Positions 57,001 to 63,000 of a DNA stretch of 64,000 nt are shown piece by piece. The DNA is from Escherichia coli. Lineage in GTDB: Bacteria > Pseudomonadota > Gammaproteobacteria > Enterobacterales > Enterobacteriaceae. Within the stretch, counting starts at the first letter, position 1, and each line of letters opens with the position of its first letter. Made by a program: the position numbers. The stretch is from assembly GCF_965641715.1 (NCBI RefSeq), contig NZ_OZ282453.1. One strand, 5' to 3'.

Positions 57001-60000
57001 GAGTGTGGAACCAAGATAGCACTCGAACGACGAAGCAAAGAACGCGAAAAAGCGGAAAAGGCAGCAGAGAAGAAACGACGACGAGAGGAGCAGAAACAGA
57101 AAGATAAACTTAAGATTCGAAAACTCGCCTTAAAGCCCCGCAGTTACTGGATTAAACAAGCCCAACAAGCCGTAAACGCCTTCATCAGAGAAAGAGACCG
57201 CGACTTACCATGTATCTCGTGCGGAACGCTCACGTCTGCTCAGTGGGATGCCGGGCATTACCGGACAACTGCTGCGGCGCCTCAACTCCGATTTGATGAA
57301 CGCAATATTCACAAGCAATGCGTGGTGTGCAACCAACATAAAAGCGGAAATCTCGTTCCGTATCGCGTCGAACTGATTAACCGCATCGGGCAGGAAGCAG
57401 TAGACGAAATCGAATCAAACCATAACCGCCATCGCTGGACTGTCGAAGAGTGCAGGGCCATCAAGGCGGAGTACCAACAGAAACTCAAAGACCTGCGAAA
57501 TAGCAGAAGTGAGGCCGCATGACGTTCTCAGTAAAAATCATTCCAGATAACAAGGGAGAAGGCGCATGGGCATAAGAGAACTAAACCTCACCAAAGAGCA
57601 GCACGAGTGGCTGAATGGCTGGCTTGAACTGTGGGGAGCATGGGTTTATTCAGGTCGTCTGGAAAAGCGCATGAGCAGCGTAATAGCTAAGTTCATGGAG
57701 AGCGTAGAGCCGGGAAGAGTTATGACAAGGCCAATGTGTAATGATGATGATGGAATGTTGATTTCTCAGGTCGTCGATTCCGTCATGTACATTGACAAGA
57801 AAGCCTTTGGCATCCTCCTCAGCTACTACGCTCATGGTTCATCTAAGCGAGCAATTGCATCCTACTATCACGCGACTGCAAAGCCACGCAAGATGTGTGG
57901 ACGTGGTGGCGAGGGATGGAGAAAACCTTCACTGGCAACCTGTAGAAACGAAATTGACGACATCCTGAAAGCGTCGTTATTTGTTTTGTACCAGCCAATG
58001 CAAAATGCTTTCAAAATGCGTAAACGTGTTGAGAAAGTTAAGCATGTTGCTGTTAAAAGCCTTGACATGCAATTAGCCATTTAGCCATAATTAGCAGGTA
58101 AGCTGCCGTTAATGACTCTTAAGTTGCAACGGTGGCTTTTTTATTTGGGTCAGTCGTATAAAGGTCATTACGGAAGGCTGTTAACCTTCTTATCGTGGTT
58201 CGAGTCCACGCTGTCCCGCCAAATATACTGGTTTAGCTCCAATGGTAGAGCAGTCGCCTTGTAAGCGAATGGGTAGCGGTTCAAGTCCGTTAACCAGCAC
58301 CATAACTGAGCCGTAGCCACTGGCTATCCTGAATTCATCAGTGATAGTTATGCTGCGGCCTTCTACACATGACCTTCGTGAAAGCGGGTGGCAGGAGGTT
58401 GCGCTAACAACCTCATGCCGTTTTGCCCGTGCATATCGGTCACGAACAAATCTGATTACTAAACACAGTAGCCTGGATTTGTTCTATCAGTAATCGACCT
58501 TATTCCTAATTAAATAGAGCAAATCCCCTTATTGGGGGTAAGACATGAAGATGCCAGAAAAACATGACCTGTTAGCCGCCATTCTCGCGGCAAAGGAACA
58601 AGGCATCGGGGCAATCCTTGCGTTTGCAATGGCGTACCTTCGCGGAAGATATAATGGCGGTGCGTTTACAAAAACAGTAATCGACGCAACGATGTGCGCC
58701 ATTATCGCCTGGTTCATTCGTGACCTTCTCGACTTCGCCGGATTAAGTAGCAATCTCGCTTATATAACGAGCGTGTTCATCGGCTACATCGGTACTGACT
58801 CGATTGGTTCGCTTATCAAACGCTTCGCTGCTAAAAAAGCCGGAGTAGAAGATGGTGGAAATCAATAATCAACGTAAGGCGTTCCTCGATATGCTGGCGT
58901 GGTCAGAGGGAACTGATAACGGACGTCAGAAAACCAGAAATCATGGTTATGACGTCATTGTTGGCGGAGAGCTATTCACTGATTACTCAGATCACCCTCG
59001 CAAACTTGTCACGCTAAACCCCAAACTCAAATCAACAGCAGCCGGACGTTACCAGCTTCTTTCCCGTTGGTGGGATGCCTATCGTAAGCAGCTTGGCCTG
59101 AAAGAGTTCTCTCCCAAAAGCCAGGACGCTGTTGCGCTGCAGCAGATTAAGGAGCGTGGCGCTTTGCCGATGATTGATCGCGGTGATATCCGTCAGGCTA
59201 TCGACCGTTGCAGCAATATCTGGGCTTCACTGCCGGGGGCTGGTTATGGTCAGTTCGAGCATAAGGCTGACAGCCTGATTGCAAAATTCAAAGAGGCTGG
59301 CGGAACGGTCAGAGAGATTGAGGTATGAGCAGAGTAACCGCGATTATCTCCGCTCTGGTTATCTGCATCATCGTCTGCCTGTTATGGGCTGTTAATCATT
59401 ACCGTGATAACGCCATCGCCTACAAAGAACAGCGCGATAAGGCCGCATCCATCATCGCTGACATGCAGAAGCGTCAACGTGATGTCACTGCACTGGATGC
59501 TAAATACACTGGAGAACTGGCTGATGCCAAAGCCACTATTGATCAGCTTGAGCGCGATGTTGCTTCTGGCAAACGTCGGTTGCAGCTCAACGCAAGCTGT
59601 CCCGCGAACGGAGCGACCAGCACCGGCAGCCTGGGCGATGCTTCCAGCCCCGGACTTACTGACTCCGCTGAACGGGATTATTTCACCCTCAGAGAGCGTA
59701 TCGTCACAGTGACGAAGCAGGTTGGCTATTTGCAGGACTACATCAACACCCAATGTCTGAAATGAGCTATGATTCTGTTTTCAATTATTAAAGGAAGATA
59801 ATAATGACTAATAGAGAAATAGCTCTTGAGCAAGCCCTTATCGCTGTTATCGGCGCTATCCGAGAAGAGGATGCTGATTTGGAGCGCATAGCAGTTAGGG
59901 CTGACATGCTTTTGCTGGATAATTCACCTTATCGAATAGTTGAGCATCCCCATGTCTCAAACGCTTTAACTGAAATTGAAAAAGCACTTAATTTCAAAAA

Positions 60001-63000
60001 GTAAATCAAGCCGCCTCCGGGCGGTTTTTTTGTTGCCATCACCATGGGTTGGCTCATCGTAATGGCAATATCTCCACAAGCGGATAAAGAGGCTCTCAAT
60101 GTTCGATATCTACCAAATCACTATCACCACCACATCGAAATAAACGTTCACCGGCATGATGAATCGGAGCCAGCCTGAAATCGTTAATGGGTTCGAGGCA
60201 CTGGCGACCGAAACGGGCGAGTGGCTGTATTTCGCTCCGGCCGATGTGAAGTGCGTGCAGTTCACGCCAGTACCGGAAGAGCAGACCGAACAGCCAGAAG
60301 AACAAACAACGGAGTAACGAATGAGCAAACCGGACTGGGAGGCCATCGAAACGGCGTACCGGTTTGCTTTATAAATTAAGCCACACGGTTTCCGATAGTT
60401 GCTGGAAGAGGGATCAAAATTTCCCAGAATGGCTGTTGGGAAAACGTAGTTCCAGCCCAGTAATGTTCAATTTGATAGGTATAAACGAGGCAGGAGTTAG
60501 CATTGTTCAAAAGTGCCATATCACCTCTGTGAATTAAATCTTCATCAGCCTCAACTTCATAAATTGGAGAGTGAGGGTTCCTGTATTGCGACCTAAAGGC
60601 GATGGCTCCTTCTAATGTTTCACACGCAAAAATGCATTCATATCTTGATGGTGCGGAAGGCCGCATTGCTCTTCTATAAAACTCTAGCCCCCAATCTATC
60701 GAAAAGTTGATATGTCCTGCTATCGCGTCGGCAGAAAGAAAATAGCCATCGCCATGCTTTGATACTCCGCGTGGGAAAAGACTATTAACCATAACTTGTA
60801 ACTCTAGTGGCTGAATAGATGGGGTGATAGGTCTAACCATCATTCCATGAGAGTAGTAATTACCTGAGTCAACTGTGTAGTAAGTGGTCATAAAATACCC
60901 AAGGAAAAACAATGGCACTCACCGACAAGCAAGAAATGTTCTGTCGCGAGTACCTCATCGATTTAAACGCTACGCAAGCGGCTATTCGGGCGGGGTACAG
61001 CGCAAAGACAGCCAACCGTACTGCGTCCGAAAACATGTCAAAACCTGACATACAATTCAGAATCTCCGAATTGAAAGCGCAACGCAATGACTCTGTTGGA
61101 ATAAATGCAGAATATGTACTTAATCGCCTTATTGAAATCGACCAGATGGATGTGCTTGACATTCTCCTGCAAAACGGTGAGCTGAAACCCATCAAAGACT
61201 GGCCTAAGGTATGGCGCACAACGCTATCAGGAATGGATGTCGTGGAGATGGTATCCGCAGATAGCGCCGCACTTCTGAAGAAAATCAAATGGCCTGATAA
61301 GGTTAAAAATCTTGAATTGCTTGGGCGTCATGTTTCTGTTCAGGCGTTTAAAGACAACGTCAAAAATGAAGTTACTGGCGCTGATGGAGGACCAGTCAGA
61401 ACAGAAATTACCAACTTAACGCCGGAGCAGGCTGCAGAGGCGTATAGAAAAATGATGGGCTAAGTATGCCGTTACCATTTCCCTTCGATTTTAAACATCC
61501 TGATTACCAGATGGTTTTTGAATGGCGGATGGAACGCCTACAGCGCATTCGCCAGAATCCTGAAATATTGCCTGCACTAAAACAGTTTTACCGAACCAAT
61601 CCGGCTCAGTTCATCATCGACTGGGGCATGACAACGGACCCGCGTAATATTGATTATGGCCTGCCGGTGACCATTCCGTTTTTACTCTTCCCTAAGCAGG
61701 AGGAGTGGATCCACTGGATTATGGAACGCTGGGGCAATCGGGAGAATGGTATTACCGAAAAATCCCGTGAAATGGGGCTCAGTTGGACCGCGATCGGACT
61801 GGCCTGCTCGCTTTGTCTCTTCAACAAAGAAATGGTTATCGGTTTCGGCTCCCGTAAAGAGGAATACGTCGACAGCACCGGTGACCCGAAAGCATTGTTC
61901 TGGAAGGCGCGCAAGTTCGTGGAAACACTACCTGTAGAGTTTCGCGGTTCGTGGAGCGAGAAGAAGCACGCGCCATATATGCGTGTTGAGTTTCCTGAAA
62001 CTGGTGCCGTTATCAAAGGCGAGGCTGGCGATAATATTGGTCGTGGTGACCGTACCACGCTTTATCTGGTTGATGAGGCTGCATTCCTTCAGCGTCCTCT
62101 GCTGATTGATGCGGCGTTGTCACAAACGACGCGTTGCCGTATTGACCTGAGTTCAGTTAATGGCATGGCGAACCCGTTCGCTCAGAAGCGTCATGGCGGG
62201 AAGATACCGGTATTCACATTCCACTGGCGGGATGATCCTCGCAAGGATGAAGAGTGGTATCGCAGGGAATGCGAGAAAATCGATAATCCGGTGGTGGTGG
62301 CACAGGAACTTGATCTGAACTACAGCGCATCAGCGGAAGGCGTCCTGATTCCATCCGAATGGGTACAGGCTGCCGTTGATGCGCATATCAAACTGGGGAT
62401 CCAGCCAACAGGCAAACGACTTGGCGCGATGGATGTCGCCGACGAAGGCAGGGACAAAAATGCCTTTTCCACCCGTCATGGCTTCCTCCTGGAGAATGTG
62501 CGGGAATGGTCCGGTGTGGGCAGCGACATTTATCAGACCGTCGAGAAGGTTTTCGGCTTTTGCGAACAGGACAACCTCGAAGAGTTTCGCTTTGACGAGG
62601 ACGGGCTGGGCGCTGGCGTTCGCGGCGATGCACGCGCTATCAACGAACTGCGTAACGCTGCGCGTCGACCGTCAATACTCGCCACACCGTTTCGAGGTAG
62701 TGGCGCGGTATTTGATCCGGATGATGAAGCTGTTCGCGGGGACAACGGGCAAGCCGCACGTCTGAACAAGGACTTCTTCGCTAACGCCAAAGCCCAGAGC
62801 TGGTGGCGGTTACGTAAACTTTTCCAGAACACCTACCGTGCCGTGGTTGAGGGCATGGCCTACAACCCGGACGAAATCATCTCAATCAGCAGCGCCATGG
62901 CGAGCAAAGACAAACTCATCATCGAGCTGTCGCAGCCGACCTACTCCATTAACGGCGTGGGGAAAATCGTTGTTGATAAACAGCCTGACGGCACCAAGTC

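Follow-up and report, generated by a model that had tools for sequence, protein, structure and literature searches.

What does a gene encode that reads leftward, against the late operon and directly in front of the packaging genes of a lambdoid prophage, and how would it be expressed there? The question is raised by positions 59766-60911 of the window, a stretch of 64,000 nucleotides of Escherichia coli DNA (contig NZ_OZ282453.1). An earlier note had described here, between Rz and the terminase, an accessory region with a 66-aa ORF ending in a terminator, a 53-aa acidic ORF and an oppositely oriented gene of about 171 codons. These ORFs and the terminator are indeed present in the sequence where the note had placed them, and the region is an accessory mosaic within the late operon of the prophage, made up of four unrelated pieces (Table 1). 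Taking the layout and the function together, we consider it fairly probable that this four-piece mosaic carries a leftward cargo gene for an NAD+-using enzyme of the DUF2441 family that is made in the lysogen.

Table 1. Features of the accessory region and of the adjoining small-terminase gene; coordinates are positions in the window.
Feature	Position	Strand	Details and basis
66-aa ORF, moron-like	59804-60004	+	Preceded by AAGGAAG; G+C 40.8%
Intrinsic terminator	60008-60031	+	8-bp GC-rich stem, 4-nt loop, seven T; terminator scan
72-codon gene, phrog_6581 family	60099-60317	+	TAA at 60141-60143; PGAP, translation, XJ55 comparison
17-codon stub of XJ55-type small-terminase gene	60321-60374	+	Translation MSKPDWEAIETAYRFAL, followed by stop
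Stem-loop	60324-60368	-	8 nt past the DUF2441 stop codon; fold compared with shuffles
DUF2441 (BC2332-like) ADP-ribosyltransferase-fold protein, 171 aa, cargo gene	60376-60891	-	ATG at 60891
Divergent spacer, cargo insertion point	60892-60911		20 nt, holds the terS Shine-Dalgarno AAGGAA; sequence
Small terminase subunit terS, Terminase_2 type	60912-61463	+	phrog_51, E 3e-51; PGAP 'terminase small subunit'
Candidate weak sigma-70 promoter	61059-61087	-	TTGCGT (61087-61082)-17-GATTCT (61064-61059); homology to Ppid

The first piece, as we read the layout, would comprise the low-G+C 66-aa gene and the intrinsic terminator that follows it. The ORF corresponds to WP_045622346.1 (hypothetical according to PGAP) and matches phrog_31739 (E 2.4e-19); Pfam, NCBIfam and PADLOC gave no match, nor did a tblastn search of 50,697 phage records, and its DNA is confined to the same three of 5,426 complete E. 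coli genomes that carry the DUF2441 gene. The terminator folds at -13.8 kcal/mol (z -3.26), with one of 200 shuffled sequences folding equally well, and it opens a block, 60002-60362, that is 84% identical to positions 2501-2860 of a prophage of E. coli XJ55 (L003 in our numbering of related loci).

The second piece would be a 72-codon gene interrupted by a nonsense codon, with the acidic ORF as its tail. The translation of the 53-aa ORF (60156-60317, plus strand) is identical to that quoted in the earlier note, where it was taken for an unannotated gene of its own; the ORF turns out to be the 3' part of the disrupted gene, which PGAP annotates in one assembly, NZ_CM192843, as 'pseudo, internal stop'. 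Positions 60099-60140 and the 53-aa ORF share one frame across the TAA, the whole translating as MFDIYQITITTTSK, a stop, and TFTGMMNRSQ..., and the intact homologue of XJ55 reads GAA at codon 15. The match of the 53-aa ORF to phrog_6581 covers only profile positions 20-65 of 66. The internal TAA is common to L021-L023, while L003, L013 and L030 have the gene uninterrupted.

The third piece, the 17-codon stub, would be the residue of the replacement of one small-terminase gene by another. Its full-length counterpart, of 200 aa, starts at position 2819 of L003 with the large terminase directly downstream, and the homology of the stub to L003 stops near 60362. The stub was also found by tblastn in L021-L023, and the Klebsiella locus L005 has a similar one downstream of its DUF2441 gene. 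It is a recombination scar from a replaced small-terminase gene; the terminator, the nonsense-disrupted small gene and this stub beside the cargo gene amount to routine phage mosaicism.

The fourth piece would be the minus-strand gene for a stand-alone, 171-aa DUF2441/BC2332-like protein with an ADP-ribosyltransferase (ART) fold. A mechanical ORF call carries this gene to a GTG at 60918; the homologues all begin with MTTYY and are 171 aa long. Its dN/dS of 0.04-0.13 indicates strong purifying selection, with all close relatives at 171 aa, and on the dN/dS we reject the reading as a non-expressed junk ORF. Since the three ORFs match PHROG families (E 1e-48, 2.4e-19 and 4.4e-22) and the reverse gene is under purifying selection, they are better than chance reading frames; scans of PADLOC-DB 2.0 (at E<=0.1) and NCBIfam assigned no family to any of the three. 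The earlier note had named exclusion and virulence among the functions that such cargo may have; the PADLOC scan gave the reverse gene no match that would point to one. The G+C content of the DUF2441 gene is 42.8%, whereas Rz has 52.6% and terL 53.7%. A single-protein scan for related loci yielded only six viral loci; the DUF2441 family is widespread in bacteria and archaea, with 612 cluster representatives when grouped at 50% identity. In temperate phages of the Mu-like and Gordonia kinds, distant homologues occupy accessory slots, and further members are chromosomal or are phage-borne at a distance from any terminase. At one Klebsiella locus, a 122-aa ORF without a match lies downstream of the DUF2441 gene.

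The earlier note had seen no recognisable family in this protein and had proposed a remote-homology and structure search. That search, when run, placed the protein in DUF2441 (PF10386; PHROG 5663), with a 2AUA-type fold of the ART superfamily, by which we mean Pfam clan CL0084 and SCOP d.166.1. A direct Pfam scan of the 171-aa protein gives a weak DUF2441 match (i-E 0.0014), PGAP names the identical protein DUF2441, and PF10386 is carried by all 19 of the 19 homologues. A single-sequence search of PDB sequences returned no match, and only the family profile reached the 2AUA sequence (E 8.5e-15, with the motif residues retained). The AF2 model (pLDDT 97.3) has the same fold as 2AUA, including the split beta-sheet core of the ARTs. 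In SCOP, the BC2332-like proteins form d.166.1.6 within the ADP-ribosylation superfamily (PMC3000352), and Pfam assigns DUF2441 to its ART clan (PMC7955679). The papers retrieved on DUF2441, BC2332 and PF10386 contained classification mentions and no functional study; the window protein is an additional member of this already known, uncharacterised family.

Residue conservation, counted in 150 DUF2441 cluster representatives, singles out R73 and R83 (each 150/150), E70 (148/150), S82 (144/150), Y144 (145/147), W145 (146/147) and E157 (145/147). The window protein has all of these residues, whose conservation is 96-100%. The canonical H-Y-E or R-S-E signature on strands 1, 2 and 5 is not recognisable in the family; the candidates for a triad would be R83, which precedes strand 86-90, an aromatic residue at 111 in strand 110-115, and E157 in strand 156-161. 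We infer that R83 and E157 are positioned in the NAD+ site: R83 would act ahead of the first strand of the core, and E157 where the penultimate strand begins. The same residues bear on the possibility that the protein has the ART fold and is no transferase, being instead a binder or sponge of NAD-derived nucleotides, or a regulator working by protein contact, as Pid does on DgoR. This seems unlikely to us: across the 150 divergent sequences, the two invariant arginines, together with a core-strand glutamate and a YW pair that are both nearly invariant, have the look of a site for catalysis or ligand binding, and ProFunc matched 2AUA to the catalytic-site residues of diphtheria toxin (PMC3024214).

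Most likely, the gene encodes a stand-alone ART-fold enzyme expressed by the lysogen. Such an enzyme would bind NAD+ and transfer ADP-ribose to a protein, nucleic acid or small molecule of the host or of a foreign phage. It tells against this enzyme that among the neighbours of all homologues inspected there is no conserved gene, macrodomain or ADP-ribose-processing gene, and the neighbours of the distant homologues show no consistent functional association and no PADLOC match except one methyltransferase. A toxin-antitoxin module of the DarTG or RES-Xre/ParST kind was considered and rejected, the contexts examined having no conserved co-oriented macrodomain or Xre partner and no PADLOC match. 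Since there is no partner antitoxin, the DUF2441 protein is presumably non-toxic to its own host.

The view that an oppositely oriented gene at this place is cargo gains from the comparison of related phages: the DUF2441 gene lies in the slot of pid of P22 and BTP1, where related phages that share this terS have other genes on the reverse strand. The other occupants include a 72-aa ORF in L002, DUF6953 plus YodC in L004, a 144-aa protein in phage ES2, and pid itself. As is asked of a moron, the occupant of the site varies among closely related phages and its base composition differs from that of its neighbours. The first 81 nt of terS are 93.8% identical to P22/BTP1 DNA that overlaps the BTP1-annotated start of the pid CDS and extends upstream of it. 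Wherever upstream DNA is visible, the DUF2441 gene is divergent from the 5' end of terS, and the spacing of 20-24 nt between cargo and terS recurs in L005, L013, L021-23, L025, L026 and L029-31; a DUF2441 relative at 45% identity adjoins a retained 107-aa remnant of terS. Judging from this shared flanking DNA, the DUF2441 gene and pid occupy one and the same cargo slot.

This strict association with the 5' end of a Terminase_2-type terS, seen in all enterobacterial prophage loci examined, speaks for a packaging accessory tied to the small terminase, that is, for a housekeeping phage function. We reject this reading because the slot contents are replaceable: phages with near-identical terS (L002, L004, ES2, P22) hold unrelated genes. 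Moreover, the DUF2441 gene is on the strand opposite to terS; L029-L031 keep it beside a defunct remnant of terS, the working terS being about 0.8 kb away; other members of the family reside away from any terminase; and its rarity among E. coli genomes, noted above, also counts against a housekeeping role, which we regard as very improbable.

A cargo gene in this slot would be expressed independently, as pid is. Leftward transcription would start from a weak constitutive promoter within terS, at about codons 50-59, whose hexamers align with TTGCTT-17-AATCCT, the Ppid promoter of P22 and BTP1. The -10 element and the transcription start of Ppid, 174 nt upstream of pid, have been mapped experimentally (PMC8835761). 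The upstream region of pid is itself a terS in decay, broken by a frameshift and two stop codons; it retains 73.7% identity across 251 nt and is matched by tblastn at E 1e-13. The resulting leader, of about 160 nt, would be antisense to the start of terS, and the 5' third of terS would at the same time provide the upstream DNA for the cargo gene. In BTP1 lysogens, pid exceeds 100 TPM (PMC7067206), and its expression belongs to carrier cells and lysogens and does not occur in strictly lytic growth (PMC3573128, PMC7067206). Given the homology of the promoter within terS to Ppid, the DUF2441 protein would be made in lysogens or carrier cells, and head-on late transcription may silence its gene in lytic growth.

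The expression pattern of its slot-mate pid argues against an infection-phase, anti-defence enzyme like AcrF11, whose action would fall on host immunity, by modifying one of its proteins or by consuming or altering one of its signals, instead of serving the lysogen. Against such an enzyme also count the setting of the DUF2441 gene, which is on the strand opposite to the late operon and distant from the early ones, and the RelBE pair, of a lysogen type, that adjoins the homologue in Gordonia phage JuJu, an argument drawn from few loci. Small stand-alone ARTs do include the anti-CRISPR AcrF11, and we still hold an anti-defence role to be distinctly improbable.

Turning back to lysogen expression, each hexamer of the candidate promoter matches the consensus at three of six positions, the site sits in coding sequence that is conserved anyway, and it fell below the threshold of a consensus promoter scan. 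In L005 and L026, merely 57 nt of terS are kept beside the DUF2441 gene and the Ppid-like site is absent; therefore another promoter must serve there. The 80 nt near the ATG that the window shares with L005 revealed no convincing sigma-70 site, either by eye or by promoter scan, and there is no good Shine-Dalgarno sequence upstream of the ATG. At the other end of the gene, the stem-loop (-21.3 kcal/mol, z -3.71, none of 200 shuffles as good) has a U-poor tail and is not conserved in L005 or L013; it is possibly a 3' stabiliser or a weak terminator.

A broader proposal can be offered tentatively, as one that may well prove wrong: that the DUF2441 proteins are active, stand-alone, NAD+-dependent ADP-ribosyltransferases residing in lysogen-expressed slots of temperate phages (enterobacterial lambdoid, Mu-like and Gordonia) and modifying a target of the host or of a rival phage, and that the 5' third of Terminase_2-type terS genes is a portable promoter-leader cassette for any adjoining cargo, pid being one instance. 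On this proposal, the DUF2441 proteins would constitute a new class of single-gene enzymes for defence, anti-defence or lysogenic conversion. Should the protein be active, a function would be at hand for a widespread orphan family that has had a crystal structure since 2005, and a partner-less ADP-ribosyltransferase would join those prophage-expressed genes whose products change the physiology of the host or its susceptibility to phage.

How does this locus compare with known systems? Phage lambda carries bor, an opposite-strand gene downstream of Rz. The analogy with bor, drawn in the earlier note, is positional: each is an accessory gene on the reverse strand, placed downstream of Rz within the late region of a lambdoid phage. 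Bor has a different fold, the 171-aa protein has no Bor family match in Pfam or NCBIfam, and its N-terminus (MTTYYTVD...), by reading, is without a lipobox or signal peptide; a Bor-like lipoprotein was rejected. In family and fold, the counterpart is BC2332 of Bacillus cereus (PDB 2AUA), the founder of DUF2441 and of SCOP d.166.1.6, which is 19% identical to the window protein and differs from it by an N-terminal extension of some 40-45 residues (HMMER coordinates) and by being encoded in the chromosome of a Firmicute, whereas the window gene is prophage-borne. Arr, which acts on rifampin, and AcrF11 are, as small stand-alone ADP-ribosyltransferases, among the closest known systems.

In location, the counterpart is pid of P22 and BTP1, likewise a reverse-strand gene that abuts the 5' DNA of a Terminase_2-type terS between the lysis and packaging genes and that has homologous upstream DNA, including the mapped -35 and -10 positions of Ppid (PMC8835761). 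The two differ in several respects. Their proteins are unrelated, with no BLASTP alignment; the P22 copy of terS is a decayed pseudogene, whereas that of the window is a working gene; and pid has a strong Shine-Dalgarno sequence and a canonical terminator, whereas the window gene has a poor Shine-Dalgarno sequence and only a U-poor hairpin. By this comparison, the well-studied pid locus of P22 is one occupant of a general cargo slot. The promoter and leader of the slot would derive from a small-terminase gene, and this derivation would offer a concrete, testable explanation for the expression of unrelated morons there.

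The window is E. coli chromosomal DNA with a lambdoid prophage in it. According to the RefSeq annotation of NZ_CM192843 (one of the three genomes that match the interval under study) and the ORF list of the window, the Q antiterminator gene is followed by tRNA genes, the holin, lysozyme and Rz genes, the interval under study, the genes of the small (terS) and large terminase, and the portal and head genes. Among 5,426 complete E. coli genomes, three match the stretch 59700-61000 at 99.8-100% identity, and no other contains all of it. A check of the window sequence confirmed every feature that the earlier note had listed at its place. 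An Rz1-type lipoprotein ORF with a lipobox, which RefSeq does not annotate in the identical region, is nested in the +1 frame of Rz. ARAGORN places two tRNA genes between the Q antiterminator and holin genes; for the identical prophage, RefSeq lists tRNA-Asn only, and both tRNAs are annotated in the related prophage L002.

Features of the window and of the related loci (L-handles), with coordinates in the respective sequence
Feature	Locus	Position	Strand	Remark
tRNA-Asn(GTT)	window	58147-58221	+	
tRNA-Thr(TGT)	window	58227-58302	+	
Lambda-family holin	window	58545-58868		
GH24 lysozyme	window	58852-59328		
Rz	window	59325-59765		
Rz1-type ORF	window	59524-59712	+	62 aa
66-aa ORF	window	59804-60004		
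Terminator	window	60008-60031		3' of 66-aa ORF
53-aa acidic ORF	window	60156-60317		
terS-type stub	window	60321-60374		
Hairpin	window	60324-60368	-	
DUF2441 gene	window	60891-60376	-	171 aa
Small terminase (terS)	window	60912-61463		
Large terminase	window	61466-63088		
107-aa Terminase_2 fragment	L029	4653-4976		beside 45%-identical DUF2441 gene
107-aa Terminase_2 fragment	L030	1757-2080		beside 45%-identical DUF2441 gene
107-aa Terminase_2 fragment	L031	880-1203		beside 45%-identical DUF2441 gene
72-aa ORF	L002	2798-3016	-	cargo at slot
DUF6953 + YodC-family gene	L004	2749-3254	-	cargo at slot
144-aa 'transcriptional regulator'	L017 (Cronobacter phage ES2)	2056-2490	-	cargo at slot
pid	Salmonella phages P22 and BTP1			cargo at slot
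Decayed terS pseudogene	L016 (BTP1 LT714109)	1500-1762		aligns with window 60912-61162; terS codons 1-89

The reverse-strand gene had been described as having no recognisable family; instead, its protein clearly belongs to DUF2441/BC2332-like, as follows from its PGAP name, the annotation of its homologues and a family-profile match. PGAP calls the identical protein 'DUF2441 domain-containing', PF10386 is carried by 19 of 19 homologues found in a search of 5.8 billion proteins, and the family profile matches the sequence of 2AUA, the structure of the DUF2441 founder BC2332 from Bacillus cereus, at E 8.5e-15. A direct Pfam scan recovers DUF2441 weakly (i-E 0.0014), and the protein matches the uncharacterised PHROG family phrog_5663 at 1e-48. 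At E<=1e-3, an exhaustive phmmer search yielded 612 cluster representatives; almost every one is a stand-alone protein of 165-190 aa. The AlphaFold2 model, built with a 68-sequence alignment, has a pLDDT above 90 at all residues (mean 97.3; pTM 0.91), and the best 50 matches listed in AFDB50 are all DUF2441 or uncharacterised proteins, coming from Proteobacteria, Firmicutes, Actinobacteria, Bacteroidetes and one haloarchaeon. SCOP places 'BC2332-like' (d.166.1.6) within the ADP-ribosylation superfamily (PMC3000352), Pfam assigns DUF2441 to the ADP-ribosyltransferase (ART) clan (PMC7955679), and 2AUA matched the diphtheria-toxin catalytic site in a ProFunc template search (PMC3024214). By structure, the protein belongs to the ART superfamily, of which it is a putative catalytic member.

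Pairwise Nei-Gojobori comparison of the window gene with five homologues at 78-89% amino-acid identity, each of exactly 171 codons, gives dN/dS values of 0.04-0.13. Among 150 cluster representatives, R73 and R83 are invariant, E70 is conserved in 148 and S82 in 144, position 111 is aromatic in 143, and position 124 is occupied by D or N in 148; further downstream, Y144 and E157 are each conserved in 145 of 147 representatives, and W145 in 146. In the model, R83 immediately precedes strand 86-90, and E157 is the first residue of strand 156-161. ARTs of the R-S-E type possess an arginine and a catalytic glutamate at comparable positions, of which R83 and E157 may be the counterparts. A literature search on the DUF2441 family found no report of an activity, and it is possible that the protein is a non-catalytic binder.

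The distant homologues occupy other accessory positions. In Mu-like phages and Klebsiella phage KP12, the DUF2441 gene lies between a Dam-type methylase gene and the lysis genes; in the Gordonia phages Yeezy, Guacamole and JuJu, it is located between the tail genes and an integrase or immunity cassette, adjoining RelBE in JuJu; in Citrobacter, it resides in an integrase-bearing island, and other distant homologues are solitary chromosomal genes. At 4999-6573 of locus L032 and 2487-4067 of KP12 (L019), the DUF2441 gene (36-37% identity) and the gene of an orphan Dam-type DNA adenine methyltransferase are divergently oriented just upstream of the lysis genes. A 572-aa protein (P0084; L027 2230-3948) combines an N-terminal CHAT (caspase-like protease) domain with a C-terminal DUF2441 domain on a contig whose replication genes (PCNA, primase large subunit) are of archaeal type. 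In the loci examined, no conserved partner gene adjoins the DUF2441 homologues, which rules out a toxin-antitoxin ART. The DUF2441 protein matches no PADLOC defence model, and neither do the neighbours of the distant homologues, bar one methyltransferase. The best-supported mechanism would be a stand-alone, NAD+-using ART-fold enzyme that lysogens or carrier cells produce and that acts on some target. Its action may benefit the lysogen, through exclusion, defence or altered physiology, or it may serve the phage through anti-defence, as AcrF11 does.

The smaller pieces of the interval are debris of phage mosaicism. The 66-aa ORF (G+C 40.8%) is preceded by the ribosome-binding site AAGGAAG and followed by a terminator, an 8-bp hairpin rich in G+C (dG -13.8 kcal/mol, z -3.26) with a run of seven T. 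Its protein matches the uncharacterised PHROG family phrog_31739 (2.4e-19) and has no match in Pfam, NCBIfam or PADLOC; the gene lies to the left of a further junction, near 60002, and its DNA is confined to the same three E. coli genomes. The 'hand-found' 53-aa ORF has exactly the translation that the earlier note quoted but, rather than being a gene of its own, is the in-frame tail of a gene broken by TAA 60141-60143. This follows from its continuity of frame, across the TAA, with the ATG at 60099, from the PGAP labelling of 60099-60317 as a pseudogene interrupted by a stop, from intact 70-72-aa homologues in E. coli XJ55 (codon 15 being GAA), an Enterobacter prophage and metagenomic prophages, and from a match to phrog_6581 (4.4e-22) that covers only profile positions 20-65. 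The nonsense codon is common to the three IMG/VR relatives of the window prophage. Translation re-initiation at the ATG-ATG at 60156 is possible; no Shine-Dalgarno sequence precedes it. The stub translates to MSKPDWEAIETAYRFAL and a stop; in XJ55, the same opening runs on into a 200-aa protein immediately upstream of a large terminase, by position a small terminase of another type. Since this opening matches the XJ55 gene, and the similarity between the window and XJ55 spans 60002 (terminator included) to 60362 and then ends, the stub is, as judged from sequence, the scar of the recombination that delivered the present packaging module. The hairpin just 3' of the DUF2441 stop codon (-21.3 kcal/mol) has a U-poor tail, is not conserved and may be either functional or accidental. 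Its 10-bp outer stem, GCAAACCGGU/ACCGGUUUGC, pairs the start of the stub with the recombination junction itself.

The DUF2441 gene and terS are on opposite strands, and 20 nt separate their starts. The same divergent layout recurs, with 20-24 nt between the two, in a Klebsiella variicola prophage (DUF2441 identity 82%), in an Enterobacter hormaechei prophage (78%), whose lysis and portal genes differ, and in all IMG/VR loci with visible upstream DNA. Homologues of only 45% identity show it too; they adjoin a 107-aa Terminase_2 remnant, with a functional 326-aa terS about 0.8 kb further on, suggesting that the fragment has been retained for expression of the cargo gene. Phages with nearly the same terS hold unrelated reverse-strand cargo at the same point, some 20-50 nt from the start codon of terS (see the table). 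This site has the look of a general hot spot for cargo. The Klebsiella prophages L005-L008, carriers of the DUF2441 gene with 82% identity, also encode, at 7893-8177 in the same accessory region between the lysis and terminase genes, an Acb2/Tad1-hairpin protein of the anti-CBASS/anti-Thoeris sponge family.

How such cargo might be expressed is indicated by pid, a divergently transcribed moron (PMC3573128) that is among five prophage genes exceeding 100 TPM in BTP1 lysogens (PMC7067206). Its promoter, Ppid, was mapped via up-mutations, promoter fusions and RNA-seq, with a -10 element AATCCT at 181-186 nt before the pid start codon and the transcription start at -174, giving an unusually long leader (PMC8835761). 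Alignment of BTP1 with the window reveals, in the ~260 nt that precede pid, a decayed Terminase_2-type terS copy (73.7% nucleotide identity over 251 nt, E 7e-38; tblastn 1e-13), disrupted by one frameshift and by two stops in frame; in P22/BTP1, both the pid 5'UTR and the mapped promoter fall within this pseudogene. The word 'terminase' is absent from the two pid papers examined. In the alignment, the Ppid hexamers TTGCTT-17-AATCCT fall opposite TTGCGT (61087-61082) and GATTCT (61064-61059), which lie 17 nt apart on the minus strand of the window, some 168-173 nt before the DUF2441 ATG; a similar hexamer, AATTCT or GATTCT, is present in 8 of the 9 other loci compared. The window site is weak, under the threshold of a consensus scan, and sits in coding sequence that is conserved anyway. 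From the Ppid mapping and the hexamer alignment across loci, we infer a weak constitutive leftward promoter within codons 50-59 of the working terS. Such a promoter would express whichever gene is inserted beside the terS start codon, and the cargo leader would run antisense to the terS ribosome-binding site. In L005 and L026, the DUF2441 gene is accompanied by no more than 57 nt of terS, so another promoter must act there.

Nothing in the protein family, the fold or the pid-type slot is categorically new, DUF2441 being known but uncharacterised, and the remaining features of the interval (the 66-aa gene, the broken gene and the stub) are ordinary phage mosaicism. The DUF2441 gene, rare in E. 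coli (3 of 5,426 genomes), offers a tractable way into an orphan ART family. The pid slot extends beyond P22, with a promoter and leader that would derive from terS. The window locus is one more occupant of the P22 pid slot: the pid gene of P22/BTP1 and the DUF2441 gene share the same position, whereas the proteins that they encode have no sequence relationship.
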